Source of the DNA: Squalus acanthias
Taxonomy: Eukaryota
Length of the DNA: 64,000 nucleotides
Assembly (NCBI GenBank): GCA_030390025.1
Contig: CM059445.1
Coordinates: 58,900,001 to 58,964,000 of the forward strand
Direction of reading: 5' to 3'
Part shown: positions 10,401 to 30,568 of the stretch, piece after piece
How the letters are laid out: the number at the start of each line of letters is the position of its first letter
How positions within the stretch are numbered: the first letter of the stretch is position 1
Made by a program: the position numbers and the translations under genes
Notes under the pieces: generated by a model
What the model was told of the DNA's origin: nothing
What the model saw: the letters and a program-made list of their open reading frames with translations, nothing else
The model's database searches: none

Positions 10401-13400
10401 AAAGAATTCAATTATATAGAGAGACTAGAGAAACTGAGGTTGTTCTCCTTAGAGCAGAGAAGGTTAAGGGGAGATTTGATAGAGCTGTTCAAAATCATGA
10501 AGGGTTTCGATAGAGTAAATAAGGAGAAACTGTTTCCAGTGGCAGGAGGGTCGGTAACCAGAGGACACAGATTGAAGGTGATTGGCAAAAGAACCAGAGG
10601 CGACATGAGGGAAAAGCAGTTTATGCAGCGAGTTGTTGCGATCTGGAATGCACTGCCTGAAAGGGCGGTGGAAGCAGATTCAATATTCAAAAAGAAATTG
10701 GAGAAATACTTGAAGAAGGAAACTTTGCAAGGCCATGCGGAAAGAGCAGGGGAGTGGGGCAAATTGGATAGAATCTGTCAAAGAGGCACGATGGGCCAAA
10801 CGGCCTCCTTCTATGCTGTATTATTCCATGATTCAATGTGTCAAGGAACGGTCAGGCACCTGGTGTTGTAAACTAAATTGAGAGGTCGCACAACACCAGG
10901 TTATAGTCCAACAGTTTTATTTGAAATCACAAGCTTTCGGAACTATCGCTCCTTCCTCAGGTGAAGTAAATTGGATACAGAATCGTCAGAGCATATATAG
11001 ATGGAAAAAAAAGCATGTGTACTTTACAATTGCAGACCAATAAATTAAATCATCCTGACTATCTGCCGAGGTGTGATAAAGTTAATTAAGTCAGCCAGGA
11101 AGGTACCACATCAAAAGACATAGCAAGATACAACTGAGACAATGAGGTGAAGTCGCAGGGGTTCTAACGTGTCAAAAGCTGCCGTCTGTATGTAAAACGA
11201 AAAGCTTTAAAAAAAAAAAATATTTACTTTTTTACTGGGAAAATTTTTACTTTTTTACTGGGAATCACATCTGTGAACAAGCTAACGACGACTCGAGTCC
11301 GGATCACGTCATGTATCGTGACATAAACCCAAGATCCCGATTGAGACCGTCTTCATGAGTGCAGAACTTGGCTATCATTTCTGCTCGATGATTTTGCGTT
11401 GTCGTGTGTTTCTAAGGTTGCCTTGGAGAACGCTTACCCGCAGATCCGAGGCTGAATGTCCTTGACTGCTGAAGTGTTCCCCGACTGGGAGGTAACAATC
11501 CTGCCTGGCGATTGTTGCGCGGTGCTCGTTCATACGTTGTCTCAGTGTCTGCATGGTCTCGCCGATGTACCATGCCGCGGTGCATTCTTTCCTGCAACGT
11601 ATGAGGTAGACAACGTTGGCCGAGTCACATGAGTATGTACCATGTACCTGGTGGGTAGTGTCCTCACGTGTGATGGTGGTATCTGTGTTGATGATCTGGC
11701 ATGTCTTGCAGAGTTTGCCATGGCAGGGTTGTGTGGTGTCGTGGTCGCTGTTATCCTGAAAGCTGGGTAATTTGCTGCGAACGATGGTACTTCTGAGGTT
11801 AGGCGGCTGTTTGAAGGCAAGTAGTGGAGGCGTGGGGATGGCCTTAGCGAGGTGTTTGTCGTCATCGATGACATGTTGAAGGCTGCGAAGAACATGTCGT
11901 AGTTTCTCCGCTCCGGGGAAGTACTGGACGACGTAGGGTACCCTGTTGGTTGTGTCCCGTGTTTGCCTTCTGAGGAGGTCTATGCGATTTTTCGCTGTGG
12001 CCCGTCGGAACTGTCGATCGATGAGTCGAGCGTCATATCCCGTTCTTACGAGGGCGTTTTTCAGCGTCCGTAGGTGTCCATCGCGTTCCTCCTCGTCTGA
12101 GCAGATCCTGTGTATTCGCAGGGCTTGTCCATAGGGGATGGCTTCTTTAACATGGTTAGGGTGGAAGCTGGAGAAGTGGAGCATCGTGAGGTTGTCCGTG
12201 GGCTTGCGGTAGAGTGAAGTGCTGAGGTGTCCGTCTTTGATGGAGATTCGTGTGTCCAGGAATGAGACCGATTCTGAGGAGTAGTCCATGGTGAGTTTGA
12301 TGGTGGGATGGAACTTGTTTATGTTATCGTATGTAAACTAAGCCATACAGATCAGGGGAGTGCAGTTCAATCTCCTGTCTGGGAGAGAGCTGTTACCCAC
12401 TGGGGTAGCAAGGGCACTCCAGCTGCACCCAGTGCCCCTAGGCTAGGGAAGGGAATATCAGCCAATGGTCTCTTTCCAGATCACCGTCTAGTGCCCGCTG
12501 CTGGAAGCTGCATGTGGGTGGTTATTGAGGCCAGCGGTGATTCCATCATCATTGCACAAAAGATCCTGGCCTGCAACGAATATTAGTGGGCAATAACAGA
12601 GCTCAGTCTGTGCTGAGAAACCTGACATCGCTTCAAGGGGGGTTTATATATAGAATAGCAGATACCCGGGAGTGAGTTACAGGCTGGAATCTAATCGAGG
12701 GGTTCGGGGGGGTTGATATATAGAATAACAAATACCCGGGAGTGAGTTACAGGCTGGAATCTAATTGAGGGGTTCAGGGGGTTTATATATAGAATAACGG
12801 ATACCTGGGAGTGAGTTACAGGCTGGAATCTAATCGAGGGGTTCGGGGGGGGTGGGCTTATATATAGAATAACGAATACCCGGGAGTGAGTTACAGGCTG
12901 GAATCTAATCGAGGGGTTCAGGGGTTTTATATATAGAATAACGAATACCCGGGAGTGAGTTACAGGCTGGAATCTAATCGAGGAGTTCGGGGGGGTTATA
13001 TATAGAATAACAGATACCCGGGAGTGAGTTACAGGCTGGAAGCTAATCGAGGGGTTCGGGGGGGGTTATATATAGAATAGCAGATACCCGGGAGTGAGTT
13101 ACAGGCTGGAATCTAATCGAGGGGTTCGGGGGGGTTTTATATATAGAATGACAGGTACCCGGGAGTGAGTTACAAGCTGGGATCTAATCGAGGGGTTCGG
13201 GGGGGGTTATTTATAGAATAACAGATACCTGGGAGTGAGTTACAGGCTGGAATCTAATCGAGGGGTTCGGGGGGGGTTATATATAGAATAACAGATACCC
13301 GGGAGTGAGTTACAGGCTGGAATCTAATCGAGCGGTTCGGGGGGGTTATATATAGAATGACAGGTACCCGGGAGTGAGTTACAAGCTGGGATCTAATCGA

Positions 13401-16400
13401 GGGGTTCGGGGGGGTTTTATATATAGAATGACAGGTACCCGGGAGTGAGTTACAGGCTGGAATCTAATCGAGGGGTTCGGGAGGGTTATATATAGAATGA
13501 CAGGTACCCGGGAGTGAGCTACAGGCTGGAATCTAATCGAGGGGTTCGGGGGGGTGTTATATATAGAATAACGGATCCCCGGGAGTGAGTTACAGGCTGG
13601 AATCTAATCGAGGGGTTCGGGGGGGTTATGTATAGAATAACGGATACCCCGAAGTGAGTTACAGGCTGGAATCTAATCGAGGGGTTCGGGGGGTTTATAT
13701 ATAGAATAACAGATACCCGGGAGTGAGTTACAGGCTGGAATCTAATCGAGGGGTTCGGGGTGTTTATATATAGAATGACAGATACCCGGGAGTGAGTTAC
13801 AGACTGGAATCTAATCGAGGGGTTCGGGGGGTTTATATATAGAATAACGGATACCCGGGAGTGAGTTACAGGCTGGAATCTAATCGAGGGGTTCGGGGGG
13901 GTTATATATAGAATAACAGATACCCGGGAGTGAGTTACAGGCTGGAATCTAATCGAGGGGTTCGGGGGGGTTTATATATAGAATAACGGATACCCGGGAG
14001 TGAGTTACAGGCTGGAATCTAATCGAGGGGTTCGGGGGGGGGTTATATATGGAATGACAGGTACGCGGGAGTGAGTTACAGGCTGGAATCTAATCGAGGG
14101 GTTCGGGGTGGTTTATATATAGAATAACAGATACCCGGGAGTGAGTTACAGGCTGGAATCTAATCGAGGGGTTCGGGGGGTTTATATATAGAATGACAGG
14201 TACCTGATGCAGCATCACTAGCGGTGGAAATGAACCCACTGCCTCTCAACACAAGTAATGAGATTTCCACCACTCTCCGGGCACTGACTGCTTGTTGCTA
14301 CTCTACAGATATCCGCTCAATCTCAGCGGTTGGCATCTCAACCCCGACATACCTGTTTGTGAAAGAGGGGATGGAGCTACGGCTGGACTGCATGCTCAAC
14401 TACAGTGCTCACACACAACTACACAACGTCAAGCTGGAATGGCACCACACCCCTGATAGTGGTGCTGAAGAGGACTTGGTGAGTGATAGGTCCCCCAGTG
14501 CTCGGTGCTGATCCCCAGGGGCTGCACTCCACCACGACCCTCTGATCCTGGGTCTTGAGCTCGAACCATGCAGGTGTCAACATGTTGCCAGTTTAGGGCA
14601 ACTGAGCTGCTGCCGGCCAGAACTGGTCAGGAATCGGCCTATTGACCGTCTCTGGGAGTTCTGCGGAACTTGGGCACCAAAGCACGCTCCAAACGATGCT
14701 GTTTTGGTGCATCCACTAAAACTGTAACTTAACCAAAAATACAACAACTGAAACTTAACAAATTAAATTAAAATTTCATTTCCGGGGGTGATGATGCACT
14801 CCAGACCCTGCGGTGCCCACCGGTCGCGGAAGACGATGAGGGCAGAATTCAGTGGGTGACCTGCTCTGGTTATGATATACCTCGAAAGGCACGGAGGGTG
14901 AATTTAGGGGTTTTCACTGTCCAGCACATATCAAAAATACGAAACTACCCCAGTTAGTCTTCAGAATAAAGTGCCAGGGAAATATTTGGCCATATGCCAT
15001 GTTTGCCACACCAATGTGCCAATATATTTTAAACAGCTCGCACCCCGACACTGGGTCTGTGGATGTTTCAGGGAGACAGCGTCCCTTTAAAGGTTCACGG
15101 TAGTTTTTGCGTTCTGCGACATGCAAATGAGTTTGAGCCGAAACTCGAGGGAAAAAAAAAACACTACTCAAAACCGCCGCACTTTGCGCCCGGATCATCG
15201 AATGCGTCCAAAGTGGAAACACCACCCCCAGGTCTGCCGGGATTATTGACTTTAAACCATTTGCAGAATGCTGAAGCTGCTTCTGTAACTCTTCCGTTTT
15301 GTTTATTGTTCATACTTGGGATGTGGGCCTTGCTGGCAAGGCTGGGATTTATTTTCCATCCCGAGTTGCCCTGAGAAGGTCTTCTCCCGTTTGATACAAC
15401 TGAGTGGCTTGCGATGCCATTTCAGAGGGCAGTTGAGAGTTAACCACGTTGGTATGGGACTGGAGTCACATGTAGGCCCAGACTGGCTAAGGATGGCCGG
15501 TTTCCTTCCCTAAAGGGCAGTTGTGAACCAGTTGGGTTTTTACAACAATCTGATAGCTTCATGGTCACTTTTACTGACAACAGCATTTTATTTCCAGAAT
15601 TATTTTTTAAACTGCGATGGTGGGATTTGAATTCACGTTCTCTGGATTGAAAGTACAGGCCATGGGATGGACAACGTAAAGGAAGCTTTACTCTGTATCT
15701 AACCCGTGCTGTACCTGCCCTGGGAGTGTTTGATGGAACAGTGTAGAGGGAGCTTTACTCTGTATCTAACCCGTGCTGTACCTGCCCTGGGAGTGTTTGA
15801 TGGGACAGTGTAGAGGGAGCTTTACTCTGTATCTAACCTGTGCTGTACCTGCCCTGGGAGTGTTTGATGGAACAGTGTAGAGGGAGCTTTACTCTGTATC
15901 TAACCCGTGCTGTACCTGCCCTGGGAGTGTTTGATGGAACAGTGTAGAGGGAGCTTTACTCTGTATCTAACCCGTGCTGTACCTGCCCTGGGAGTGTTTG
16001 ATGGAACAGTGTAGAGGGAGCTTTACTCTGTATCTAACCCGTGCTGTACCTGCCCTGGGAGTGTTTGATGGGACAGTGTAGAGGGAGCTTTACTCTGTAT
16101 CTAACCCGTGCTGTACCTGCCCTGGGAGTGTTTGATGGGACAGTGTAGAGGGAGCTTTACTCTGTATCTAACCCGTGCTGTACCTGCCCTGGGGGTGTTT
16201 GATGGGACAGTGTAGAGGGAGCTTTACTCTGTATCTAACCCATGCTTCTCTTTAGTTTCTTTCCTTCTTTATTCCAACACAGATTTTCTTTCACTATCAA
16301 AATCTCAGTACGGTGAAGGAGGACAGCTTGTTCACCCCGAGACTGCAGTGGGTGGGTGACATCGGACAAAACAATGGTTCCATTCTCATAACTAAAGTGG

Positions 16401-19400
16401 AATGCAATGACACAGGCAATTTCACCTGCGATATGCGGATCCCCAGGATGTCCAGCAGTATCTATAAAAGCAGCACTCACCTAACAGTTTTGTGCAAAGG
16501 TAATGTACAGAGTCGCTGTCATTCTATACACTGGTAGTGAATGGGTAGGGGTTTGGTCCCTTGGGATTCTATACTCCAGGAGTGAATGGGAAGAGATTTG
16601 GTCCATTGGGATTCTATACACTGGGTGTGAATTGGAAGGCATTTGATCCATTGGGATTCTATACACTGAGAGTGAATGGGAAAGGGTTTGGTCCATTGGG
16701 ATTCTATACACTGAGAGTGAATGGGAAAGGGTTTGGTCCATTGGGATTCTATACACTGGGAGTGAATTGGAAAGGGTTTGGTCAATTGGGATTCTATACA
16801 CTGGGAGTGATTGGGAAAGGGTTTGGTCAATTGAGATTCTATGCACTGGGAGTGAATGAGAAGGGATTTTGGTCCATTGGGATTGTGTACAATGGGAGTG
16901 AATGGGAAGGAGTTTGGTCCATTGGGATTCTAAAATCTGGGAGTAAATTGGAAGGGGTTTGTTCCATTGGGATTCTATACACTGGGAGTGAATGGGAAGG
17001 GGTTTGATCCATTGGGATTCTATATAAATTTCTGCTTTTTTTGGGGGGGGTGGGGGGTGGGAGATTTTACACCTAAATATTTCTGAGCATTTCTATTCCC
17101 TTCAGGTATGGGGCACAAACGATCTTTCCGGCTGCCTGTGTCAGAGGAAGTGGTTCCGAAGAATATTATCATATATGCAACAGTTGGGGTCTTTACCCTC
17201 TTTGTTGCGCTGTCTATTCTTGTAATCATGTGGAGGAAACGTTCGATGCACACAGCACCAAGGAGTCAAAGGTATACACTTTGAGGAGGGAGAATTTAAA
17301 GGAGTTGCATTGTCATCCACCTTTTTACGCAATTAATAATTCTGAACTTTTCTCCCCCATTCTCTGCGGTCAATACACAGAAAGAACGATCCAGGTGCCC
17401 TTGAAAACTCTGAGGTAAGGGGCGTTTTAATAATATTGTTTTTGAGTGTAGACTTTTTATAATCCAGAATATTAAATAGTCAGTCATGCTCTCAGTCACT
17501 GAAACTTTAAGACCAATTGTCAACTCCAGACCGACAAGGGTTGAGTGTTCTTCCGAGGATTCTCCATATTCAGAGGAACTTAAGACTTACTTTCCCATCG
17601 TAGAGTTAGGGGGGATCTGATTGAGGTTTATGAAGGGAACAGAATGTGTTCCAGTTGGCAGTTTGTTCCAATTAAATAGATTAGGGAGGAGCAGGGGTCA
17701 CAAATTTAAGTTGTATAAGATCTAGGTTAGATGTCAGGAGGTGGTCATTTCCCCAGAGAATAGAGGACCTCTGGAACAGGCTGCCGTCTTGTGCGGTGGA
17801 TGCCGATTCACTGAATTCCTTCAAGTGAGAGCTGGACCTGTTTCTGGCTGGGGCGGAGATCAACTCTTACGGAAGGGTAGGTACTGCAGGGAATTCAGGG
17901 CCAGAGGGATCTCCTGGACTAGTTTCGATCACCTAGGAGAGGAATTTCCCAGATTCTTGCCCCCCAAATTGGCCTGGGTTTCAATCTGGTTTTTTCACCT
18001 CTCCCAGGAGGTGGGGTGGGGTGGGGAGTGTATATGTTATGATACACAAGGTATCACAATTGTGTGGGACTTGCTGGATGAACCAGAGGGTCTTTACCTG
18101 TCCGTCATTGTTTGTTTATTTGTAAGCTTCGTCTAACCTTCACCCCATGGTTAACCCAGTGAATAAACAAAATTTAAACTTCACAGGCTTGAAAGAAGGT
18201 TGTACTGGGCTAAATGAGAGATATAGGGGGGAAAATTTGGTTGTGTTGCGCCTCCCGTTAGTGCCCTAAGAGGGCGCTAATGGGGTGCAAAGCAACTAAC
18301 GCCCAGGCACGGCGATGTTTGCGCCGCTCGCGAAATTGACCAGACATTTTGCGGCGGCGCTCAACACTACCGCCACGATCTCCTGCGCCCGCAGATCGTG
18401 ATGTTAGTCGAGTGTGCAACGCCCCGGTAGCGCCCCGGACCGGGTATTGAGTGCCGCCCCCTGCCTTACCGCCTGCCTCTAGCAACGACAGGTTGAGGGG
18501 AACGTTTTGCAGTTGGGAAGGGACTGGGGGAGCGCTATTTAAAGGCGAACACTTCCTGCCCTTTCTTGTCAGCGGCATTTTTGCACCACGCATTCTGAGA
18601 GAGAGAGAGAGACTTCTGGAGAGAATCAACATTGTGTGAAGGAGTTTTGGGTACTGAGCAGCACTTTGCAGGTTCATTTTGATTTGACCTTCCTTGCATC
18701 GATTTAGAAGAGACTATGGGGGCTGCACTCTGAACTCTTTCCCTGGACCTCTCCATTGTTCTATCCAGCAGAATTGATGTACAGGTCTCTCCAGGCCGAG
18801 ATTCAAGGTTGCAATGAGCAGGGTGTGGATGGAGAGCAAGATCGACCATCCCCTTTAAGAACTGGCCGGCGCCATTGTGTCTGTGTTTCATTGCTGACTG
18901 ACATCACATGAGCTTCGCCAGCGCTCTGAGGTAGCGCCTCGCTCCTCGGCGTTAGAGCCTTAAGAGAGGTGTGTAGCGCCTGATTTAGCGCTCCAATCAC
19001 CTCCAGGGGTGATAGAAGCCAAGTTTGTAGTCAGAGGTGATAATTAGCGCCAGGTGCTAAACTTTGTGCCCGGCCGATAATTGCGCCCCAAATGGGGCGA
19101 TACTGAATTTCTCCCCCATAAGATATTAATTGGTATAGAATCAGGTAGTATTTACAGCAGAGAAACAGGCCATTCGGCCCAACAGGTCCGTGCCGGTGTT
19201 TATGCTCCACACGAGCCCTCTTCATCTCACCCTATTAGCATATCCTTCTATTCCTTTCTCCCTCATGTGTTTATCTAGCTTCCCCTTAAATGCATCTATA
19301 CTATTCGCCTCAGCTACTTGTGGCAGCGAGTTCCACATTCTAACCACTCTCCGAGTTCCTTATTGGATTTATTAGTGACTATCTTATATTTATGGCACCC

Positions 19401-22400
19401 CCCCCCCCCCCCAGTTTTGGACTCCTTCACAGGTGGAAACATCTTCTCTACATCCACCTTATTGACCCCTTCATAATTTTAAAGACCTCTATTAGGTCAC
19501 CCCTCAGCCTTCTCTTTTCTAGAGAAAGGAGCCCCAGCCTGTTCAGTCTTCCCTGATATTTATAACCTCTTAGTTCTGGTATAATTCCTGTGAATCTCTT
19601 TTGAGCCTTTTCCAGTGCTTCTATATCTTCAAGCCCCTCCCCCTCCACTTTCCACACACAGCCCGCAGTGGGAATATCTGTCGTCTTAACGAGGTGATGG
19701 TATAGATAAGGTGAGCCCAGAATATTACTTCAAATAAAATCAGAGTAGCAAGGCCAGAGATTATACATTTAAATTAGTGAACAGTAAATTTAAAACAGGT
19801 GTTACTTAATGTGTGAGAAATGTTTAGAATGATCTGTCAGGCAGGGGTGTAGAGATTTAGGTACTGCAGAATGGGCATCAGTGGGGTACTGGAGGGTTGA
19901 GTTCCAATGGGAGAGTTATGGTATTGAAGTAATGAGCTTCAATACAAGAGTTAGAGTACTGGATAGATGGCCTTCAATTGAAGAGTTGGAATACTGGAGA
20001 GATGGACTTCAATGGGCGAGTTAGGGTAGTGAAGGGTTGAGTTTCAATGAGAAAGTTAGTGTACTGGAGGGATGGGCTTCGATGGGAGAGTTGGGGTACT
20101 GGGGGATGGGCTTCCATGGGAGTTTTGGGTACTGGGGGATGGGCTTCGATGGGAGAGTTGGGGTACTGGGGGATGGGCTTCCATGGGAGAGTTGGGGTAC
20201 TGGAGGGATGGGCTTCAATGGGAGAGTTGTGGTACTGGAGGAATGAGCTTCACTAGGAGTGTTGGGATACTGGAGGGATGGGCTTCAATGGGAGAGTTGG
20301 GGTACTGAGGGATGGGCTTCAATGGGAGAGTTGGGGTACTGGAGGGATGGGCTTCGATGGGAGAGTTGGGGTACTGAAGGGATGGGCTTCCATGGGAGAG
20401 TTGGGGTACTGGAGGGATGGGCTTCAATGGGAGAGTTGTGGTACTGGAGGAATGAGCTTCACTAGGAGTGTTGGGGTACTGGAGGGATGGGCTTCAATGG
20501 GAGAGTTGGGGTACTGAAGGGATGGGCTTCAATGGGAGAGTTGGGATACTGGAGGGATGGGCTTCAATGGGAGAGTTGGGGTACTGAAGGGATGGGCTTC
20601 AATGGGAGTGTTGGGATACTGGAGGGATGGGCTTCAATGGGAGAGTTGGGGTACTGGAGGGATGGGCTTCAATGGGAGAGTTGGGGTACTGGAGGGATGG
20701 GCTTCAATGGGAGAGTTGGGGTACTGGAGGGATGGGCTTCAATGGGAGAGTTGGGGTACTGGAGGGATGGGCTTCAATGGGAGAGTTGGGGTACTGGAGG
20801 GATGGGCTTCAATGGGAGAGTTGTGGTTCTGGAGGGATGAGCTTCTCTAGGAGTGTTGGGTACTGGAGAGATGGGTTTTGTTAGGCCAATGGCATTTTCA
20901 TATCCTTGGTATGGTGATGTGATCAGGTGGGGTGGGTTATTCACTAAATAAGACCATTAAATTTGCTGCCCACTTCTATGCCAAAAACCTTTGAGGACTA
21001 TCTGCTAATCATATTTTGTTTGGTTTCCTCAACTGTTGGTTGACATTGGAGACAATCGTTATTGTGAGATATTTGTTTTATTGTTTCAGTTTCCTCCTCT
21101 CCTCTCCTGAAGGTCCTCAGGTGCCAGCAGGATTCAGCACCACATTGAGGCAGTCATTCTTCATATATGAGTCCAAACAGTGAATGTTGGCAAGTTATCC
21201 ATCCATGGAATAACAGCTGAGCCTAATCCTGCCTTTACCTGGCATGTATTCTCCAGAAGGAATCACTAGATCAGGAGCAGGAACCCCAGCTGATGTTCTC
21301 CCGACAGGGGCTCAGAGCTCAAAAGTGCGGCCCTAATTCTGCCGCAGCAGAGTCAGCGTGGACCACTGATGGAACCTTGGGCCTTCCTGGTCCAGGCTGT
21401 TGAGTTCCACACTGCCTTGACCCAATGAGGCGTTGCAGAAAAACAAGAGGGGATTGGGCAAAATTAAATTAGAAAGTGAAGAAGAGTGAATAACCTGTTA
21501 CAGCTGATTAAACAAAACAAATATGTTCACCAACAATCAGGAGACAGACCGTTACTTCACTATGACCAGGAGACCTCCACTCCAGAGAGACAGAGGGAAT
21601 AATCCCATGGAAGGAAAGAAAAATGAGGAATCAAAGACTGGTGAAGATGAAATTTATGTAACAATGGTAAGATTCTTGAAGGAATAATTCCTTTAGCCTG
21701 ATGTAAGTAGAAGATATTACACAATGCCTGCGTGACTACCTGGTATACACAGTTAGTGATGAACCCATGCGTACTATCCATCCATTGGATACACAAATTG
21801 TGTAAAGTCATTTTACTAACAAAACTGGCCAACAGGCCTGTCCCTCTTTGAGTAATCTCAATCCTACCTACTCACCTTCCCACCATATCTCTCAATCCCA
21901 CTTTCTCACCATATCTGTCAATCCCACCTACCCACCTTCCCACCGTATCTCTCAATCCCACCAACCCCCTTTCTCACCAAATCACTCAATCCCATGTACC
22001 ATCTCCCCACCAAATCCCTCAACTCCTTTTTTTTCTCCAAAAATGCACCCAGTAGCCTCTTGAACTGATTTATACGGTCTGATCCAATGGCCTAGGTTGA
22101 TAACTTATTCTACAACTCAATTATCCTTTGTGTGGAAAAAGTTCCTCATGCCTTCTCTTCTTATTCCTTACTTCCTCATTTTAACTTGTGTCCACTGGGA
22201 TTTGAACCATTCACCATACTGAACAATTTGCCAGATCAGTTTCGTCAGTCCTCTTCATAATCGCAAACATTTCAATGAAGCCTCCTCAAAGTTTTCCCTT
22301 TTCCAAAGAAAACAAACCCACCTCCATTAGTAAAACCTAGATTCCTAACACCAGGAATTATCATTGTTGCTCACCTCTGTACCCTCTCAAAGGGCAATAA

Positions 22401-24424
22401 TATACTTCCTCAGACTGAGGGTTGCCAACCCTCCAGGATTGCCCTGGAGTCTCCAGGAATAAAAGATTGATCTCCTGGGCACTGCTGGGAGCAACCCTGG
22501 AGAAAAATTATATGGGCACTAAAAAAATGTTTTTTTTCATATTCTTTGAACACTTTCGTTATAAAAATATTAGAGATGGGGGGATAAAAAAAAGGCTGTG
22601 TGACTGAGAGTCAAGAATCATCCCATTGGGTAATGAAGAGTCTGTTCGCTTTCCAATTGGCGCAGGAAGGCGATGTGCCGTGAGGGTGGTTGTGTCAGGG
22701 CGACCAATGGTGGGAGTGTGGGGGTTGGAGATGGGAGGGTCATGTGACGATACCTCCAGGAATACATCCAACCAGAGTTGGCAACCCTAGTCACTGCGCC
22801 AGCCAACTTTCTCCTCATTGGATGTCTGCATGAGTTGACATTTATAGAAAGAAGATCTTGCATTTATACAGTACCTTTCACTAACTCCCCAAAGCGCTCT
22901 ACAGCCAATGAAGTACTTTTTGAAGTGTGGTCACTGTTGTGATGTAGGAAACTCGGCAGCCAATTTGTGCACAGCAAGCTCCCACAAACAGCAATGAGAT
23001 AATGACCAAACAATCTGTTTTTAGTGATGTTGGTTGAGGGATAAATATTGGCCAGGACACCGGGGAGAACTCCCCTGATCTTCTTCGAAATAGTGCCCTG
23101 GGATCTTTTCTGTCCACCTGAGAGGGCAGATGGTGCATCAGTTTAACGTCTCCAAAAGACGGCGCTTCCAACCGTGCAGCACTCCCTCAGTATTGCATTG
23201 GAGTGTGGGCCTGGATTTTGTGCTGAAGGGCTGGATTTTGTCTTGGGGTCGGGTTGGGGTCGTGTCATCCGCATTTCGTGTTATCCACCCGCCTGAAATT
23301 GGATGTGGGAGATTGATGCAATTTTCACTTAATTGGGCAATTGAGTTCCAGCATGTGGGAACCCATGAACCAATTAGTGGTTTCAGTCTGAAAGTCGCCT
23401 CTGATGATGTCATCATTGTAGGTCAGAGACTGCCTGGTCTGGTCTCAGAGATTGCCTGGCCTTTGCTGTGAGAGGACCTGGATGCAAAATGAGCAGCATC
23501 TCAGCAGAGAGAGAGAGAGAATTTTTTTTTCCATCCAGGTCCTCCAAAGGCCAGGCAGTCTCTGAAGACATTCAGTGCAGCAGCATCAGAGGCGACTTTC
23601 AGACCTAATACTACTACTACCTTCATCACATCTCCGTTGTAATAGTGGACCTGCAGCTGATAGTCAGCTATCCACTTGTGCTCCCGCCAGGTTTCACTGG
23701 CGTGTTTCACATCAGGTGTGCTTCACGTCAGAAAAGGGTTAAACTAGCTAAAACGTTTCAAAATGGCATTACAGAGCCAATTTAAGGCTTGTTAAGGGCT
23801 TTAATGGCCTCTCCCACCTCTTGGAGGCGGGACGGAGTCGGGAACACTGCACACGATTTTATCAAAATTGCGTGGAGGCGGGTTGGAGGCGGGATGGGGT
23901 CGGGACCCCTGAATCTGGAACTTTAACCCCCCACAGGCCTCCAAACCGACTCCACGGGTCATTGAAAACCCAGCCCGAAGGCTCTGGAGTGGGTCTTAAA
24001 CCCACAACCTTCCTGACTCAGAGGTGAGAGGGCAACCCACTTGAGCCACGGCTGACGCAGAAAGGGGCTGTGATTCTGTTACACCCTGTGTATTACAAAG
24101 TAATTGCAATCCGTTCCTGGCACATACCGTGGCTGGCGCATATTGTGGGGGCAATTTTGCGGGGTTGTGCTACTCCCTGGGGCGTCTCGCCCACCTGCCG
24201 AGCATTTCGGAAGATCGTGGCTGTCCCAGGTTGAGCTGTTCTGACCATTTGGGAAAACTCAGAAAAATGTGTAAATTATTCCTGCGTGCTTTGTAACTAT
24301 TGTTTTCCTGTCTCTCGTTTGTCTCCAGCGCTCATTCTTAGGAACCGGGAAATCAGACAACCAGTTTACTAATCCAATGGTACTCAACAATCCCGTTTAC
24401 GGAGAGCATTCCCACCAGGTGTAG
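4384..24424 (+). CDS. JAML: JAML/AMICA1-like single Ig-V domain type I membrane protein, 7 coding exons, 286 aa (join 4384-4435,14309-14478,16283-16499,17106-17271,17381-17414,21541-21666,24329-24424)
   Basis: Exons join by GT-AG with consistent phases (1,0,1,2,0,0) into 861 nt without internal stop: signal peptide, Ig-V (LDC..LEW..RLQWVGDIGQNNGSILI..DTGNFTC), TM helix, tail. Segments FHYQNLS, GDIxxNxGS and CDMRIPRMSSSIYKSSTHLTVL resemble recalled human JAML (YYYSNLS, GDILCNDGS, CEIRLKGESQVFKKAVVLHVL); the tail has a YxTM motif; gene lies directly upstream of SCN2B in the same orientation, as human JAML does. Confidence 0.78.
4540..4870 (+). mobile_element. hAT-like MITE (TAGGGTTGCCAAC family), right end degraded
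   Basis: AGGGTTGCCAAC left end; colinear with copies at 22418 and 59520. Confidence 0.7.
5002..5343 (-). mobile_element. CR1 LINE 3' fragment
   Basis: TRGH.LRIRG...[17 protein letters not shown]; AAGAACAT tail repeat. Confidence 0.88.
5660..7040 (+). repeat. Compound G/A-rich minisatellite: about 36-bp unit (5660-6660) then about 20-bp unit (6660-7040)
   Basis: Units GGGAAGGGGAGGGGATTGAGAGAGGGGGGGTCGATC and GGGGAACAGGAGGGGGGGA. Confidence 0.95.
7372..7970 (-). mobile_element. SacSINE1-like DeuSINE interrupted by a CR1 3' fragment (about 7690-7818, + strand)
   Basis: The SINE body resumes at tctcatctgaaagacagcacc after the CR1 tail piece. Confidence 0.78.
8212..8387. mobile_element. Small palindromic MITE family C (about 175 bp)
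   Basis: GGGGCAATTTTAA...TTAAAATGACTCC hairpin-like element interrupting an old CR1 fragment; homologous to 56543-56718. Confidence 0.65.
8454..8915 (-). mobile_element. CR1 LINE 3' fragment
   Basis: Same family as 5002-5343. Confidence 0.85.
9578..10835 (+). mobile_element. CR1 LINE, RT to 3' end, degenerate
   Basis: [54 protein letters not shown]. Confidence 0.9.
10877..12331 (-). mobile_element. Penelope-like element, 5'-truncated (RT C-terminus, GIY-YIG endonuclease, 3' pLTR)
   Basis: ORF 11375-12289 with NVVYLIRC..WYIGET..LRQRMNEH GIY-YIG signature and Cys linker; frameshift near the C-terminus; TSD TGTAAACTAA at 10867-10876 and 12332-12341. Confidence 0.93.
10927..10964 (-). ncRNA. 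Minimal type I hammerhead ribozyme in Penelope pLTR
   Basis: Minus strand UCAC-CUGAGGA-A-GGAGC-GAUA-GUUCC-GAAA-GC-UU-GUGA: CUGANGA and GAAA core, stems I and II pair, palindromic AAGCUU in place of stem III. Confidence 0.8.
12637..14205 (+). repeat. About 69-70 bp tandem repeat, about 22 copies
   Basis: Unit GGGAGTGAGTTACAGGCTGGAATCTAATCGAGGGGTTCGGGGGGTTTATATATAGAATAACAGATACCC, with a variable G run. Confidence 0.97.
14309..14478 (+). CDS. JAML: JAML-like Ig-V domain, N-terminal half exon
   Basis: ctctacag| acceptor; DIRSISAVGISTPTYLFVKEGMELRLDC...KLEWHHTPDSGAEEDL; phase-0 donor TTG|gtgagt. A mid-domain split is typical of the MPZ/SCNxB/JAML family. Confidence 0.88.
14730..14835 (-). mobile_element. 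Possible Tx1/L1-type LINE extreme 3' fragment
   Basis: Minus strand reads VFRDRWAPQGLECIITP followed by a T-rich UTR, like recalled C-termini of fish Tx1 ORF2. Confidence 0.45.
15376..15670 (-). mobile_element. Unassigned tRNA-headed SINE-like repeat
   Basis: B-box-like TTCAAATCCCACC on the minus strand near 15620-15632; its 3' side joins a LINE-tail fragment at about 15305-15375. Confidence 0.45.
15680..16246 (+). repeat. 67-bp tandem repeat, about 8.5 copies
   Basis: Unit GGGAGTGTTTGATGGGACAGTGTAGAGGGAGCTTTACTCTGTATCTAACCCGTGCTGTACCTGCCCT. Confidence 0.97.
16283..16499 (+). CDS. JAML: JAML-like Ig-V domain, C-terminal half exon
   Basis: Long polypyrimidine tract then cacag|; IFFHYQNLS...RLQWVGDIGQNNGSILITKVECNDTGNFTC...THLTVLCK; phase-1 donor G|gtaatg. 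Confidence 0.9.
16520..17025 (+). repeat. 45-bp tandem repeat, about 11 copies
   Basis: Unit GGGATTCTATACACTGGGAGTGAATGGGAAAGGGTTTGGTCCATT. Confidence 0.95.
17106..17271 (+). CDS. JAML: JAML-like stalk and transmembrane exon
   Basis: ttcccttcag| acceptor; IIIYATVGVFTLFVALSILVIMW followed by RKR stop-transfer; phase-2 donor AG|gtatac. Confidence 0.85.
17381..17414 (+). CDS. JAML: JAML-like 34-nt cytoplasmic micro-exon (RKNDPGALENSE)
   Basis: Pyrimidine tract and tacacag| acceptor, GAG|gtaagg donor; converts phase 2 to phase 0 exactly as the next exon requires. Confidence 0.72.
17600..18135 (+). mobile_element. Old CR1-type LINE 3' fragment with long 3' UTR
   Basis: GDLIEVY, RGHKFKL..., FPQRI..LWNRLP remnants. 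Confidence 0.6.
18226..19117. mobile_element. MITE family B (PIF/Harbinger-like non-autonomous)
   Basis: TIR GGGGGGAAAATT...AATTTCTCCCCC, TSD ATA, CpG-rich subterminal palindromes. Confidence 0.82.
19150..19630 (-). mobile_element. CR1 LINE 3' fragment
   Basis: LEKAQKRFT.IIPEL...[17 protein letters not shown]. Confidence 0.8.
19868..20880 (+). repeat. 35-bp tandem repeat, about 29 copies, more diverged at the 5' end
   Basis: Unit TACTGGAGGGATGGGCTTCAATGGGAGAGTTGGGG. Confidence 0.95.
21085..21425 (-). repeat. Old dispersed SINE-like family (related pieces at about 3436-3760, 7270-7350, 12342-12530, 26210-26350, 60970-61215)
   Basis: Recurrent diverged blocks TTCTTCATxTxTGAG, TCCAGxAGGGGTCAC..GATCAGGAG..GGAACCC..GCTGA, CCTTCCTGGTC. 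Confidence 0.5.
21541..21666 (+). CDS. JAML: JAML-like cytoplasmic exon with YFTM and YVTM motifs
   Basis: aatcag| acceptor (weak pyrimidine tract), 42 open codons ending EDEIYVTM, donor ATG|gtaaga. Confidence 0.75.
22418..22789 (-). mobile_element. hAT-like MITE (TAGGGTTGCCAAC family)
   Basis: TIR AGGGTTGCCAAC...GTTGGCAACCCTA. Confidence 0.8.
22845..24057 (-). mobile_element. SacSINE1-like DeuSINE split by MITE A (23228-23976)
   Basis: SINE tail and body on the left, tRNA-like head on the right of the MITE. Confidence 0.8.
23228..23976. mobile_element. MITE family A (PIF/Harbinger-like non-autonomous), inserted in a DeuSINE
   Basis: TIR GGGCTGGATTTT...AAAACCCAGCCC, 3-bp TSD GAA. Confidence 0.82.
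24329..24424 (+). CDS. JAML: JAML-like last coding exon (RSFLGTGKSDNQFTNPMVLNNPVYGEHSHQV*)
   Basis: Strong acceptor tctctcgtttgtctccag|, phase-0 frame ending TAG 24422-24424, AT-rich UTR and AATAAA downstream. Confidence 0.75.
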   Translation, partial: RSFLGTGKSDNQFTNPMVLNNPVYGEHSHQV

Positions 24425-24717
24425 TTTCCCACTCGACGGGTTTTCCAGCAGATCGTTTGAATTTTTTGAGGCTGTATTCAATCATCATTTTATTAACGCC
24501 CACAATTCTTCAAGAATATGTCGAACGGATTTGGTTTGACGGAGTGAGTGAGAGATTCTTTCAGCAACACTGGTTCCCTAAGCTCTGGGGTTTTTTTTTT
24601 AAACCCCTTCGAATCAAACTGGTTCCGTTTTATTGCATTAAGAAGCACAAACTGCACTTCTGGCTCCAACTTTAAAAATATTCCATTTTAATGTTTGCAA
24701 GGACATAACTGTGAATT

Positions 24718-24723
24718 AATAAA
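24718..24723 (+). terminator. Polyadenylation signal of the JAML-like gene
   Basis: AATAAA about 295 nt after the stop, followed by a GT/T-rich downstream element. Confidence 0.6.
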
Positions 24724-24803
24724 TGCTGCGTTTCGTCCATTTCTTTAGTTCCGGTTTATGATGTTAAGGGGACACTGTCTCCTTGAAAAACTGTGTGTTA
24801 AAC

Positions 24804-25414
24804 AGTCCGTAAGGGGGACCCCGAGCTCCCGGTTGCCTGTCACTTTAATTCACCGTTTCACTCCCACTCTGACCTCACCGTCCTCGGCCTATTACACTGT
24901 TCCACGGCAGCGCAGCGTAAGCTCGAGGAACAGCACCTCATCTTTCGTTTAGGCATGCTACAGCCCTCTGGACTCAATATCGAGTTCAACAATTTTAGAT
25001 CATAACCTCAGCTCCAATCACATTTATATTTTATTTTTTCCACCCTTTTATTTGCCCCCCCCCCCACACCTTTTTTTCCCTCCTAGAAGCTGGCAGCTGT
25101 CCTTCATTCTGCCAGTGGATTTCACACTTCTTTCAGCCTTAATCTGTCACATTAACACCTCCTCTAGCCTTGCATATCTTATTAATGTCTCTTCATCTCC
25201 CCCTTTGTTCCTTTATCCCCTCCCCCTTTTCCCAGCTTTACCCTGGCCTTAAATCTATTTGATTTCCGGCTCTTCCCAGTTCTGACGAAAGGTCATCGAC
25301 CTGAAACGTTAACTCGGTTTCTCTCTCCACGGATGCTGCCTGGCCTGCTGAGTTTTTCCAGCGTTTTCTGTTGTTATTTCGGATTTCCAGCATCCGCAGT
25401 ATTTTGCTATCGTA
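24804..25414 (+). mobile_element. Penelope-like element (second family), 3' fragment
   Basis: 24805-25005 reads VRKGDPELPVACHFNS..HSHSDLTVLGL...RKLEEQHLIFRLGMLQPSGLNIEFNNFRS* (GIY-YIG C-terminus); TSD TGTGTGTTAAAC at 24792-24803 and 25415-25426. Confidence 0.88.
25278..25314 (+). ncRNA. Minimal type I hammerhead ribozyme in Penelope pLTR
   Basis: AGUU-CUGACGA-A-AGGUC-AUC-GACCU-GAAA-CG-UU-AACU: intact core, perfect stems I and II, palindromic AACGUU. Confidence 0.83.
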
Positions 25415-25721
25415 TGTGTGTTAAACTTGTTTTCTATTTTGTTTAGAAGTTGGGGGGGGGGGGGAGGGGGTGGAAAGGTCAAAATGTGTTATTTTTACTT
25501 TGAGCTCAGATGTGTTTCCATGGCGCTTTTCAATCTGATTTCTGTTCCATGGGGAACTTGTAACCAAACAAAAAAGTTTGCCATCACTCGTGAAGTATGC
25601 ACCCCTTTAACATAGTTCTTCATTGTAGTATTAAACTGTGTGGCTTGTTGGTGTAGAACCTCAAAGAGGAAATATTCAGAGTCGCCACACAGCCTTTTCT
25701 CCTCGGATTTCTCCCCCTCCT

Positions 25722-26151
25722 AGAAAAGAAATAACTTGCATTTATATAGCGCCTTTCATGACCTCAGATGTCCCAAAGCATTTTACAGCCAATGAAGTAC
25801 TTTTTGAAGTGTAGTCGCTGTTGTTATATAGGAAACGCAGCAGCCAATCTGCACACAGCAAGCTCCCACAAACAGCAACGTGATAATGACCAGATAATCT
25901 GTTTTTAGTGATGTTGGTCGAGGGATAAATATTGGCCCCAGGACACCGGGGAGAACGTGTAGTTCTTCTTTGAATTGTGCCATGGGATCTTTTACATCTA
26001 CCTGAGAGTGCAGATGGAGCCTTGGTTTAATGTCTCATCCAAAAGACGGCACCTCCGACAGTGCTGCTCTCCCTCAGTACTGCACTGGGAGTGTCAGCCT
26101 AGATTTTGTGCTCAAGTCCCTGGAAGTGGGGCTTGAACCCACAACTTTTTG

Positions 26152-26185
<34 letters not shown>

Positions 26186-26193
26186 GGCTGACA
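25722..26193 (-). mobile_element. SacSINE1-like DeuSINE, full length
   Basis: Complete tRNA head, Deu-domain and AAAGGCGCTATATAAATGCAAGT tail on the minus strand. Confidence 0.85.
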
Positions 26194-27712
26194 TGTCCCC
26201 TGATTACTAGCCCTCCCCTCTGATGTCTTTCCAAAAGGGGTCGCTGGATAGTACTCAGGAACAGCATCACCGCCTCTCAAATGCAGTGACACTGAAGCCA
26301 ATTGAAGCAACCAGCCACTTGCCCTAGTTAGAATCAGCGAACTCAGCGTATACCAGCAGTCGTAATATCTTTACAAATGATGGTGGAAGTGAGAGTGTAG
26401 GTGTACCAGAGAAGGTCAAGGAACAATGGATTATAATTGTAGAAAAGGAAATAGATTCTGAAAAAAATTAGCAGAACTCACGGTGGATAAGTCACTGGGC
26501 CCTGACCACATGCACCTTAGGCTGCTGAAAGAAGTTGTAGAAGGTTGGGCCACAATTTCTCATTAAATGTACAAGTTGTGTTGTGGGGCTGGAGGGTAAT
26601 GAATATAACATTCGTGTTCAAGAATGGAGATAAACCAGGTAACTACAGACCACTGAGTCTAACGTCAGTTCTAGGCGATTCTTCGAATCCATTATTTGAG
26701 ATCAAATTAATGACCATCTAGAAATGAAAGGGTTAATCGAGGTCAACCAGCATGGATTTGAATCATAGAATCATAGAAAGTTACAGCACAGAAGGAGGCC
26801 ATTTCGGCCCATCGTGTCCGCGCCGGCCAACAAAGAGCTATCCAGCCTAATCCCACTTCCCAGCTCTTGGTCCATAGCCCTGCAGGTTACAGCATCCCAA
26901 GTGCACATCCAAGTACTTTTTAAATGTGGTTAGGGTTCCTGCCTCTACCACCCTTTCAGGCAGTGAGTTCCAGACCCCCACAACCCTCTGGGTGAAGAAA
27001 TTTCCCCTCAAATCCCCTCTAAACCTTCCACCAATTACTTTAAATCTGTGCCCCCTGGTTTTTGACCCCTCTGCTAAGGGAAATAGGTCCTTTCTATCCA
27101 CTTTATCTATGCCCCTCATAATTTTGTACACCTCAATAAGGTTTTCCCTCAGCCTCCTCGGTTCCAAGGAAAACAGACCCAGCCTATCCAGTCTTTCCTC
27201 ATAGCTAAGATTCTCTACTCCCGGCAACATCCTCGTAAATCTCCTCTGTACCCTCTCTCATGCAATCACATCTTTCCTGTAATGTGGTGACCAGAACTGC
27301 ACGCAGTACTCTAGCTGAGGCCTAACTAGTGTTTTATACAGTTGAAGCATAACCCCCCTGCTCTTGTATTCTATACCACGGCTAATAAAGGCAAGCATTC
27401 CGTATGCCTTCTTAACCACCTTATCTACTTGGCCTGCTACCTTCAGGGATCTGTGGACATGCACTCCAAGGTCCCTTTGTTCCTCTACACTACTCAGTGT
27501 CCTACCATTTCATGTGTATTCCCTTTCCTTGTTAGCCCTCCCCAAATGCATTACCTCACACTTCTCCGGATTGAATTCCATTTGCCACTGTTCTGCCCAC
27601 CTGACCAATTTATTGATCTCTTCCTGCAGTCTACAGCTTCCTTCTTCAGCATCAACCACACAGCCGATTTTAGTATCATCTGCAAACTTCTTAATCATAC
27701 CCCCTATATTCA

Positions 27713-27843
27713 TGATGTGGAGATGCCGGCGTTGGACTGGGGTGGACAAAAATGAGAAGTCGCACAACACCAGGTTATAGTCCAACAGATTTATTTAAAA
27801 TTACAAGCTTTCGGAGCTGTCGCCCCTTCCTCAGGTAGAGTTA
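27713..27843 (-). mobile_element. 131-bp solo Penelope pLTR-like insertion inside a CR1 RT ORF
   Basis: Homologous to 10880-10964; 12-bp TSD CCCCTATATTCA at 27701-27712 and 27844-27855; removing it restores the CR1 reading DLDLNIGGMI. Confidence 0.88.
27802..27837 (-). ncRNA. Minimal type I hammerhead ribozyme
   Basis: Minus strand UAC-CUGAGGA-A-GGGGC-GACA-GCUCC-GAAA-GC-UU-GUA; stems covary with the 10927-10964 copy. Confidence 0.78.
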
Positions 27844-30489
27844 CCCCTATATTCAAGTCAAGATCGTTGACATATACCACAAAAAGCAAGGGACCTAGTA
27901 CTGAGCCCTGCGGAACCCCACTGGAAACAGCCTTCCAGTCACAAAAACACCCATCAACCATTACCCTCTGCTTCCTGTCTCCGAGCCAGTTTTGAATCCA
28001 CCTTGACACTTTGCCCTGGATCCCATGGGCTTTTAACTTCATGAATAGACTGCCATGTGGAACCTTATCAAAAGCCTTGCTAAAGTCCATATACACTACA
28101 TCAAACGCACTACCCTCATCTACCCTCCTTGTTACCTCCTCAAAAAATTCAATCAAGTTTGTCAGACACGACCTTCCCTTAACAAATCCGTGCTGACTAT
28201 CCTTGATTAATCCGTGTCTTTCTAAATGAAGATTTATCCTGTCCTTCGGAATTCTTTCCAATAATTTCCCCACCACTGAGGTTAGGCTGACTGGCTTGTA
28301 ATTACTCGGACTATCCTTTTCTCCCTTTTTAAACAAGGGAACCACATTAGCAGTCCTCCAGCACCACACCTAAAGCTAGAGAGGATTGAAAAATGATGGT
28401 CAGGGCCTCTGCTATTTCCTCTTTTGCTTCGCTTAACAGCCTGGGATACATTTCATCCGGGCCTGGGGATTTATCCACTTTTAAAGCTGCTAAACCCCTT
28501 AATATTTGTTGAAGGCAAGTCGCGATTGCCAAATTTAATAGTTTTTTTTGAAGAAGCGACTGATTGGCTAGATAAAGGGAATCCAGGTAGATGTAGTGAA
28601 TGTGGATTTTTCAGGTGACTTTTGATATGGAGTCTCACAGGAGGCTTGTTACAAAAATTCAGGCTTCTTTTATAGAAGGAGATGTAACAGCACAGATAGA
28701 AAGTTGGTTGATGGATAGAAAGTGGGGTAAATGGATATTGCGCGGACCCACATGGGATCCACTTGCGTTCTCGGTATGTGTAGATGATTTGGGTTTAGGA
28801 ATAGGGAGCACGATATTGAACAACACAAAAGTGGGGGGGGGGGTTTCAAGCAGTGAGGAGGACTGTAAAAGACTTCAAGACATTAGTGGAATGGGCAGGC
28901 CTGGTGGCAGATACAATTTAATGTGTGAGGTAAAACATTTTGGGGAGCAAAAACAAGTAATGGGGAGTAGACAGTCAATGGAAAAATACTGAAGGGCGTG
29001 GATGAACAGAGACCCAAGGGTTCAAATACAGAATTACCTGAAGGTGCGAGTGCAGTAGATAAACCATTAAAAGGCCAACACATTTGGGGTTTTATAAATG
29101 GGGCACAGACTGAAACAGTAAAGGAGATGAGGATAAATTTGTACAGGGCCACAGTCAGTGCACTGTGTGCGGTTTTTGGGCAGCCTATTATAGAATGGAC
29201 ATTAAAGCCATAGAGTGCACACATTAAATTGCATCTGCCACCTCTCTGCCCATTCCAATAATGTCTGGAAGTATTTTACATACCTCCTCACAGCTTGAAA
29301 ATCCTCCACTTTTGTGTTGTTCAATATCATACAGTGCAGATTCACCAGGATGATAACAGAGATAGGAAACTATAGTTATAGCGAGAGACTCGAGATACTG
29401 AGATACTCAATATTTATTGACACTTGAGATACCGGGCCAAATGGCCTACTCCTGCTCCTATTTCTTATTTCCACAGTGGCAAAGAAAGCTAAGAGGATTC
29501 AGTAGAGGGCTTTAAAATTGAGGGGTTTTGATAGAATGAATAGGGAAAGATGATCAAAGAGGGAGAGGAAGAAGAGGGAGTGGGGGAAGGGGAGAGGGAG
29601 AGAGAAGGGGAGGGAGTAGCAAAAGGAAGATGGGGAAGGAGAAGGGAGTGGGAGAAGAGGGAGTGAGAAAGAGAATGGGGAGAAGGGAAGGGGAGAGAGG
29701 GGAAGGAATGCAAACTCAAACTGCAGCTAGATCCAGGGGCAATGAGATGGAGGTAAATTCAGTGATTTGGGGGAGGGATTAAATCATCATTTAGATTATA
29801 AACTTTAATATATAAAAAACAACTCTGAATGTAAAGGAAATAAATAGGCAAGTCAGGTCTGTATAATTTTAATTTCAGAATGTATTTCACACAGTATTTA
29901 CAGCACAGAAACAGGCCATTCAGCCCAACAGGTCGCTGCTGGTATTTATGCCCCACACCAGCCTCCTCCCTCCCCTCTTCATCTCACCCCATCAACACAT
30001 CCTTCTATTCCTTTCTCCCTCGTGTGTTTATCGAGTTCCCCTTAAATGCAACTACGCTAGGCAACTTTAAATGGTTAATTTCCTGTGGTTTTTCCGCCCC
30101 TCACAGCCCAAATATGGACCTGAAAAATATGGAGGGATAAATAATTCTGGCTCCCAGTAACAGGGCTCCTGTTAATTAATAGCAGTTTGCAGATTCTGAT
30201 GATTTGCTTTTTTCTATTCTCGTTATTATTTCACCCCCACCCAGCCACCCACAGCACATTGATTTCTCAGTGAACAGAACTGCCGTTGTCTCTCACCTCC
30301 TCCAAAGCACCGAATGAACCCCCTTCCCATTTCCAGCAAACACACATCCAGCCATATTGAACCTCGGTTCAAGCCTCTGCCGAGCAGCCCGGCGCTGAGA
30401 CAGAGCGAGAGAGAGAGAGTTCGAGTTCTGTACCTCCCATCATCACCGCCTCCTTCCTTCCCCGGCTCTCCATCGCTGGGAAATTCGCA

Positions 30490-30568
30490 ATGAAAGTTAA
30501 TGCCAGACCGGCTCTCCCTCTGCTGCATTTCGGCTTGGTCGGGCTGATGCTGCTGTCCAGCGGCTGGG
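30490..30568 (+). CDS. SCN2B: SCN2B exon 1 (signal peptide [26 protein letters not shown])
   Basis: ATG in GC-richer unique DNA, hydrophobic leader with RPA as in mammalian beta-2, phase-1 donor G|gtaagt matching the exon 2 phase. Confidence 0.85.

Follow-up and report, generated by a model that had tools for sequence, protein, structure and literature searches.

A 64,000-nucleotide stretch of the Squalus acanthias genome (GenBank assembly GCA_030390025.1, contig CM059445.1, positions 58,900,001 to 58,964,000; hereafter the window, numbered from its first letter) carries three minimal type I hammerhead motifs, referred to as HHR1, HHR2, and HHR3, each in the end repeat of its own truncated insertion; the insertions are from two families (A and B) of Penelope-like elements (PLEs). 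Judged by sequence, the three motifs are genuine copies of a known self-cutting RNA fold, of a kind known since 2014, and they are called intact here in that sense. In the reading that we favor, to which we assign a probability of about 0.75 as a whole, pairs of motifs from the same family cleave and thereby process multi-unit element RNA, and scattered copies such as these three are passive leftovers.

HHR1 (10927-10964, minus strand; family A, loop AGCU) has a stem I of 4 bp and a stem II of 5 bp, with the cut predicted between 10931 and 10930. HHR2 (25278-25314, plus strand; family B, loop ACGU) has stems of the same lengths and a predicted cut between 25310 and 25311. HHR3 (27802-27837, minus strand; loop AGCU) is from a family A subfamily other than that of HHR1 and has a stem I of 3 bp with a C-A mismatch at the fourth position, a stem II of 5 bp, and a predicted cut between 27805 and 27804. 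Common to all three are CUGANGA, a single extra A ahead of stem II (between positions 9 and 10.1), GAAA, a 2-nt loop, and UU, so that each contains the core CUGANGA ... GAAA ... UH with helices I and II, and a helix III shrunk to a palindromic stretch at 15.1-16.1. A descriptor scan of both strands of the window returned exactly these three motifs, where the earlier note had placed them, and no others; dinucleotide shuffles of the window (n = 200) gave a mean of 0.07 loose matches and 0 strict matches. An Rfam scan yielded no hammerhead family up to an E-value of 1 and a single chance match only, and in the absence of a model match the motifs fall outside the canonical type I hammerhead as defined by Rfam, which has 1-2 bp and a loop in stem III together with tertiary contacts between loops. 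The decayed extra candidate that had been suspected alongside them was recovered by profile search as a family B-like end repeat at 31329-31472 (minus strand; E 5.7e-10 to the family B profile), which has kept CUGAGGA and lost GAAA and the loop.

Each motif lies within a pseudo-long terminal repeat (pLTR) near the 3' end of its own 5'-truncated insertion, and each insertion is flanked by a target-site duplication (TSD) of 10-12 bp. Element 1 (10877-12331, minus strand) is a family A copy with a tail-less 3' end and HHR1 in its 3' end repeat, 93% identical to the full-length unit at locus L062. Its remnant of the open reading frame (ORF; 11307-12331, minus strand), with 91% amino acid identity to the L062 protein, covers the end of the reverse transcriptase (RT) region, a CX4CXXC linker, and a GIY-YIG endonuclease (E 7.6e-4, weaker than the Pfam cut-off), and the frame is broken near 11378. 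The 10-bp TSD of this element is found at 12332-12341 (5' copy) and 10867-10876 (3' copy), both on the minus strand, and within the target (10858-10876) a short stretch of the reverse strand matches the end repeat of the family itself, resembling a landing on a look-alike. Element 2 (24804-25414, plus strand) is a tailed family B copy, 95% identical to the tandem units of locus L241, that begins with the last 67 codons of the GIY-YIG domain, the endonuclease C-terminus (24804-25005, plus strand), and is bounded by a 12-bp TSD at 24792-24803 (5' copy) and 25415-25426 (3' copy), both on the plus strand. Element 3 (27713-27843, minus strand) is a 131-bp family A insertion, 96% identical to the 5' end repeat of L062, that starts 9 nt before the core, ends in a tail of ~35 nt (about 27713-27747), and interrupts the RT frame of a long interspersed nuclear element; its 12-bp TSD lies at 27844-27855 (5' copy) and 27701-27712 (3' copy), both on the minus strand. 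In both families (27713-27790 and 25330-25397 in the window), the stretch just 3' of the ribozyme and the tail could form an 8-bp stem that encloses the tail-less end and may be the stem-loop where reverse transcription begins.

Full-length copies of both families are intact elsewhere in the genome. At L062, a full family A unit has an 892-aa ORF directly after the tail (RVT_1, E 2.3e-8), and its two end repeats carry one motif each, at a distance of 3,046 bp. For family B, a 1,004-aa open frame was counted by eye in 23 of 150 scored matches, and L241 (C4:15715500-15725400) is a near-identical triple tandem with a period of 3,198-3,199 bp and one motif per unit. The proteins of the two families are 31% identical over 850 aa, and the closest named relatives of the element protein are from shark (92%, 85%, and 80% identity). 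As in other endonuclease-positive (EN+) PLEs, a single ORF encodes RT and, at its C terminus, a GIY-YIG endonuclease, with protein homologues that carry PF00078 and PF01541, and the copies have pLTRs from partial tandems, inverted 5' copies, an optional 30-40-nt tail (present in 40 of 99 anchored family A copies), and a short TSD. End-repeat position, ORF remnants, and full-length units together establish the origin from two Penelope families that had been proposed from the window alone. Both families have CX4CXXC before the endonuclease, in agreement with the CX2-5CXXC linker between RT and endonuclease that marks the Neptune and Nematis clades (Craig et al. 2021, PMC8557442), and by this linker they are classed as Neptune/Nematis-type PLEs, a placement at the level of the two clades together and not split between them.

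The motif at L241 has the canonical GUC triplet, and U at N7 makes the core spell an in-frame ATG. When N7 is U, the family B ORF could therefore start inside the ribozyme, in which it would resemble the Poseidon element PAc of Anolis carolinensis, whose ORF starts there (Frangieh et al. 2024, PMC11167929). An apparent family B tandem at C1:7.05 Mb was rejected as an element array and is a satellite-borne duplication: the truncated family B copies at L061 and L066 (C1:6.99-7.06 Mb) are embedded in a ~35-bp satellite and were multiplied along with it. One shark gene model (P0015) fuses an epsin-2 annotation to a 94%-identical piece of the element protein and is probably an annotation artefact or an exonisation.

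The motif is abundant across the 3.71 Gb that were searched, with reversed patterns as controls. A general core pattern without pairing rules gave 143,146 matches, or 38.5 per Mb, against 461 in the control, which bears out the guess of a very large ribozyme population made from three motifs; at this mean density about 2.5 would be expected in 64 kb, so that three are ordinary. Narrow exact patterns for the two families gave 22,832 (A) and 25,104 (B) matches and 0 in the controls. The loop consists of G and C only in 127,488 of the 143,146 matches, and is GC or CG in 98 of the first 100. A third palindrome family (AUAU/AAUU) was considered and rejected, as loops of A and T only numbered 695 against 157 in the control and many of them are double CpG decay of family B. 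The sample of 159 distinct cores comes from loci at the beginning of contig 1, with enrichment through the narrow patterns; 138 have at least 3 pairs in stem I, at least 4 pairs in stem II, and a palindromic loop. The extra base ahead of stem II, which the search pattern demands without specifying its identity, is A in 158 of the 159. A downstream anchor that is blind to the ribozyme and occurs 97,107 times was used to choose 99 family A copies, and the core is intact in 75 of them. By eye, ~38 of the first 100 listed motifs are in back-to-back inverted pairs, and for ~9 another motif of the same family and strand lies within 5 kb, so that insertions are fewer than motifs and most motifs are without a partner in cis.

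Variation in the stems keeps pairing at several levels. When HHR1 is compared with HHR3, a change on both sides is seen at stem I pair 3 alone (C-G to U-A), and the two stem II differences are one-sided wobble changes (A-U to G-U and G-U to G-C); of the covariation that the earlier note had described for these two motifs, the stem I part stood and the stem II part did not. Across 92 family A cores, stem I pair 3 is C-G in 55, U-A in 29, U-G in 4, and another combination in 4, and the variation at stem II pairs 3 and 4 is one-sided. Families A and B differ on both sides at stem I pairs 1-4 and at stem II pairs 1, 3, and 4. N7 takes all four letters and loop II spans 3-8 nt, with the core otherwise fixed. 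The 10.1-11.1 pair is G-C in 91 of 92 family A cores; the 64 family B cores have A-U (47), G-U (16), or G-C (1), retaining a purine-pyrimidine pair. One family A subfamily of about 4,000 copies carries a U4C change (4,388 matches at the core position, with C in 89 of the first 100), and its stem II pair 5 runs from C-G through U-G (21/100) to U-A (39/100), as counted by eye, which is a true compensatory series. This subfamily, with members for example at C1:906703-906732 (L068) and C1:1072594-1072721 (L147), has its own stem II variant. Stem covariation across genomic copies, the lack of which would have told against the earlier proposal, is thus seen as pair-keeping variation within family A, within the U4C subfamily, and between A and B, although it stems from few independent events.

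The loop is family-specific, as had been supposed: it is GC in 91 of 92 family A cores and CG in 57 of 64 family B cores, the rest of which are mostly CpG decay (over the whole sample of 159, GC 91, CG 58, TA 1). H17 is U in 144 of the 159 cores and C in 15; C17 breaks the 6-mer palindrome and retains the 4-mer, and the conserved unit is therefore the 4-mer AGCU or ACGU. The hexamers AAGCUU and AACGUU in which the palindromes were first described do read as palindromes, but A14 and H17 are core positions and the working unit is 4 nt. In the double hammerhead stem I is intermolecular (Forster 1988, as described in PMC4209133) and should therefore add at least as much as the palindrome to the choice of partner. 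A-A and B-B dimers can form 3-4 pairs per stem I and 4 stem III pairs, and HHR1 with HHR3 can form 2-3 and 4; an A-B heterodimer has 0-1 stem I pairs and 2 stem III pairs. The hexamer duplex energies are -4.3 and -3.5 kcal/mol for the homodimers and -0.2 kcal/mol for A-B. Pairing is thus predicted to occur within a family only and to be set by both stems.

The present analysis adds where copies begin: short copies start 4-7 nt before the core, ~30 nt past a TATA-like box, often behind a G, and rarely at the cut site. Among the 99 anchored family A copies, the start lies 12 to 6 nt before C3 in 18 (exactly at -7 in 7 of them) and inside the motif in ~16; 0 start exactly at the cut site, and 2 start within 3 nt past it. 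Genome-wide, 4,434 copies of the main A subfamily have a purine right before -7 (G 82 : A 18 in the first 100), and 2,794 have G or C one base further in (G 29 : C 71), compared with only 398 junctions for all six positions that lead to the cut site. When the first 100 of these were sorted by eye into bins from -5 to +1, the counts were 17, 8, 17, 17, 13, and 28, and 10 of the last 28 reflect a 4-nt microhomology to the inverted partner, so that any excess of copy starts at the cut site is at most slight. For family B, 2,878 copies, point mutants included, have a non-native base before -4 (G 45, T 28, and A 27 of 100). Long copies show what lies upstream of this position: TATATA is found at -32 from the start in 5 of 6 distinct long family A copies, and TTAAA at -32 to -29 in 29 of 33 long family B copies. 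In the window, the TATA-like box of element 1 (10993-10999, minus strand) is 32 nt ahead of a putative, initiator-like RNA start at 10967, 7 nt before the core, and TTAAA in element 2 (25249-25253, plus strand) is 29 nt ahead of a putative start at 25278, the first base of stem I. The presumed start sites of both families match an initiator consensus. From these features we infer that the RNA starts at the 5' edge of the ribozyme, and the ribozyme is likely at the tip of the capped RNA and copied uncut. Rotifer pLTRs have a TATA box plus a TCACT initiator (PMC3846280). An intron with its 3' splice site at the ribozyme edge, as in Drosophila Penelope, was considered and is unsupported, as AG is there in some subfamilies only.

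We propose that transcription starts 4-7 nt before the core, so that the first ~40 nt of the capped RNA are taken up by the motif. Reverse transcription would start internally, about 50 or 85 nt 3' of the cut site (the tail-less or tailed end), as has been shown for the anole element PAc, which has internal RT starts and a tail, cleaves only with protein, uses uncut RNA as its main substrate, and inserts in vitro unaffected by ribozyme mutations (PMC11167929). It would pass through the uncut or religated motif, and runs to the RNA 5' end would give copies of 95-135 bp such as element 3, with longer runs on read-through RNA giving elements 1 and 2. A lone motif, with a stem III of 1 bp, would be inactive, as expected from known chemistry; in published work the minimal hammerhead is inactive as a monomer and weakly active as a dimer (PMC4209133). 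Two motifs would exchange stem I strands, AGCU pairing with AGCU and ACGU with ACGU without cross-pairing of A and B, and would do so most readily when tandem arrays are transcribed by read-through or when the element protein assists. Cleavage would need a same-family partner or the element protein and would process tandem transcripts.

Several observations weigh against this reading. The 10.1-11.1 pair in family B is A-U or G-U in 63 of 64 cores, not the usual G-C. The covariation comes from few independent events, those of subfamily founders, inherited by many copies. U4C reduces hammerhead activity in vitro (PMC3088659), and a subfamily with this change spread to about 4,000 copies; full activity is therefore not needed. 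In the 24 G-preceded junctions that were inspected, the G could derive from the inverted partner in 16, seems untemplated in 7 (4 of these identical), and is unclear in 1, so that a cap-derived G is only suggested; for family B, none of 30 junctions, 10 with a detectable TSD, has a clean extra G, and the G excess (45/100) is all that is left. Folding of the single motifs surpasses that of shuffles by a modest margin only (z -1.9, -1.7, and -0.75), and the lowest-energy fold of HHR2 is an alternative hairpin. Co-folding yielded no double-hammerhead fold for any pair under an energy model that lacks the core contacts, a result counted neither way. The 24 sequence runs consulted are all contigs, in which RNA ends are not visible, and most of them are only guessed to be RNA; the 4 aligned to the full-length unit cover it, with neither starts nor ends nor a splice joint at the ribozyme, and neither cleavage nor expression follows from these data.

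The scarcity of ends at the cut site is also compatible with religated circles. In the model proposed in PMC4209133, cleavage and religation would produce unit-length RNA circles, RT rounding the circle would give partial tandem copies, and cleavage would be central to transposition. Tandem and partial-tandem units do exist, and circles would regenerate the motif without giving rise to 5' ends at the cut site, which matches the junction data. We nevertheless regard this route as unlikely: the starts of thousands of copies fall just ahead of the core, preceded by a TATA-like box, and so suggest linear capped templates for at least the short copies, and the ribozyme mutants of the anole element leave insertion in vitro unaffected. 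It is equally doubtful that catalysis is nearly irrelevant and the fold is kept for a promoter, a 5' untranslated region structure, or protein binding, or as a passenger. The motif does overlap the putative start site, the U4C subfamily was amplified despite its lowered activity, and Naiad PLEs thrive without hammerheads (PMC8557442). A promoter role would not predict, however, that families with proteins only 31% alike keep all core positions, the extra A, and the palindromic loop with stems that change on both sides.

That HHR1-3 were domesticated to cleave or control transcripts of the JAML-like and SCN2B-like host genes nearby is very improbable. The motifs are within about 20 kb of both genes and HHR2 is on the gene strand, but three per window is what the genome mean predicts, the copies are young at 93-96% identity to full-length units, the orientation of HHR1, HHR3, and the decayed copy is antisense relative to both genes, and for HHR2 the window offers no intact partner of its own family. 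Chance matches, for which the shortness of the motif and the missing Rfam match might speak, are refuted by the shuffles, the excess over the reversed control, and the fixed place of the motif in the element.

The JAML/MPZ-like gene (plus strand) has a V-set exon at 16256-16534 (top match JAML, E 3e-12), a transmembrane exon at 17087-17284, and a candidate last exon at about 21508-21687 with a tyrosine motif at its end. The SCN2B-like gene (sodium channel beta-2; plus strand) spans exons at 30490-30568, about 51320-51480, 53734-53955, and 55326-55577 (E 1e-19 to solved chains); if the candidate signal-peptide exon at 30490 is genuine, the decayed hammerhead would be antisense in the first intron. 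The window is ~67% repeat by self-genome matches and tandem repeat masking, with long GC-skewed minisatellite arrays at 5480-7140, 12690-14000, 16500-17000, 20000-20880, and 57500-58700.

The motifs correspond to the minimal hammerheads described in the pLTRs of metazoan PLEs (Cervera and De la Pena 2014, PMC4209133): type I, without a real helix III, with a helix I of 4-5 bp, an extra nucleotide between 9 and 10.1, and a palindromic 15.2-16.2 stretch, mostly as lone copies of truncated elements and also in inverted pairs. They differ from these in a higher copy number, a helix II of 5 bp, and the prevalence in family B of A-U or G-U at 10.1-11.1, where G-C is strongly conserved in the 2014 collection. 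Small PLE-associated variants with a very short stem III and dimer cleavage are also on record (Lunse et al., by title and as recounted in PMC6765202). The families resemble PAc in having two 3' ends, with or without a 30-40-nt tail, 3' of the hammerhead, and in the probable use of uncut RNA as template, without a pile-up of ends at the cut site; unlike PAc, they have a Neptune/Nematis-type linker, and the family A tail ends right at the start codon with the hammerhead wholly upstream of the ORF (PMC11167929). With the Neptune/Nematis EN+ PLEs of PMC8557442 they share the single RT and C-terminal GIY-YIG ORF, the linker, partial tandems, inverted 5' copies, a tail, and a canonical hammerhead. 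Non-LTR retrozymes, which include examples in one chondrichthyan genome, likewise carry type I hammerheads from PLE end repeats (bioRxiv 10.64898/2026.07.22.740005); they are short non-coding tandem repeats with a hammerhead per unit, and HHR1-3 are not among them because they belong to three separate, dispersed single insertions with their own TSDs, two of them with ORF remnants. Sharks are not named in the passages of PMC4209133 or in the supplement table examined, and no report of a shark or elasmobranch Penelope hammerhead was found in a search whose reach ended before subscription papers and one supplement of PMC4209133, so that shark counts may be in print. Among the papers listed on a start site or cap in connection with pLTRs and hammerheads, none was on point.

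Lunse, Weinberg, and Breaker, in RNA Biol 14:1499, reportedly counted about 150,000 variants across the whole set of genomes that had been searched by then. Published counts per genome, made with descriptors that differ from the one used here, are about 4,000 hammerheads in coelacanth and 9,000 in Xenopus (PMC4209133) and up to 14,255 retrozymes in axolotl (bioRxiv 10.64898/2026.07.22.740005). Squalus acanthias might hold one of the largest single-genome ribozyme populations known, in two families that do not cross-pair and with each hammerhead at a capped RNA tip acting as a concentration sensor, a combination that we rate as a long shot. Many RNAs of the same family would then dimerise in trans and cut off their own caps, the family would limit its own expression, and short copies that lack a promoter, of which there are tens of thousands, could take part when host transcription runs through them.

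In kind, the motifs add nothing to what PMC4209133 described. This genome offers two young, intact, and very abundant families with different palindromes and stems, which form a natural specificity pair. Specialists could also use its widespread U4C variant and its junctions, which by the thousand locate the RNA start and show that RNA is rarely copied once cut; copy number and start-site evidence lend the case some value as a test system. With one motif per ~26 kb, even weak activity, if there is any, would reach many host pre-mRNAs.

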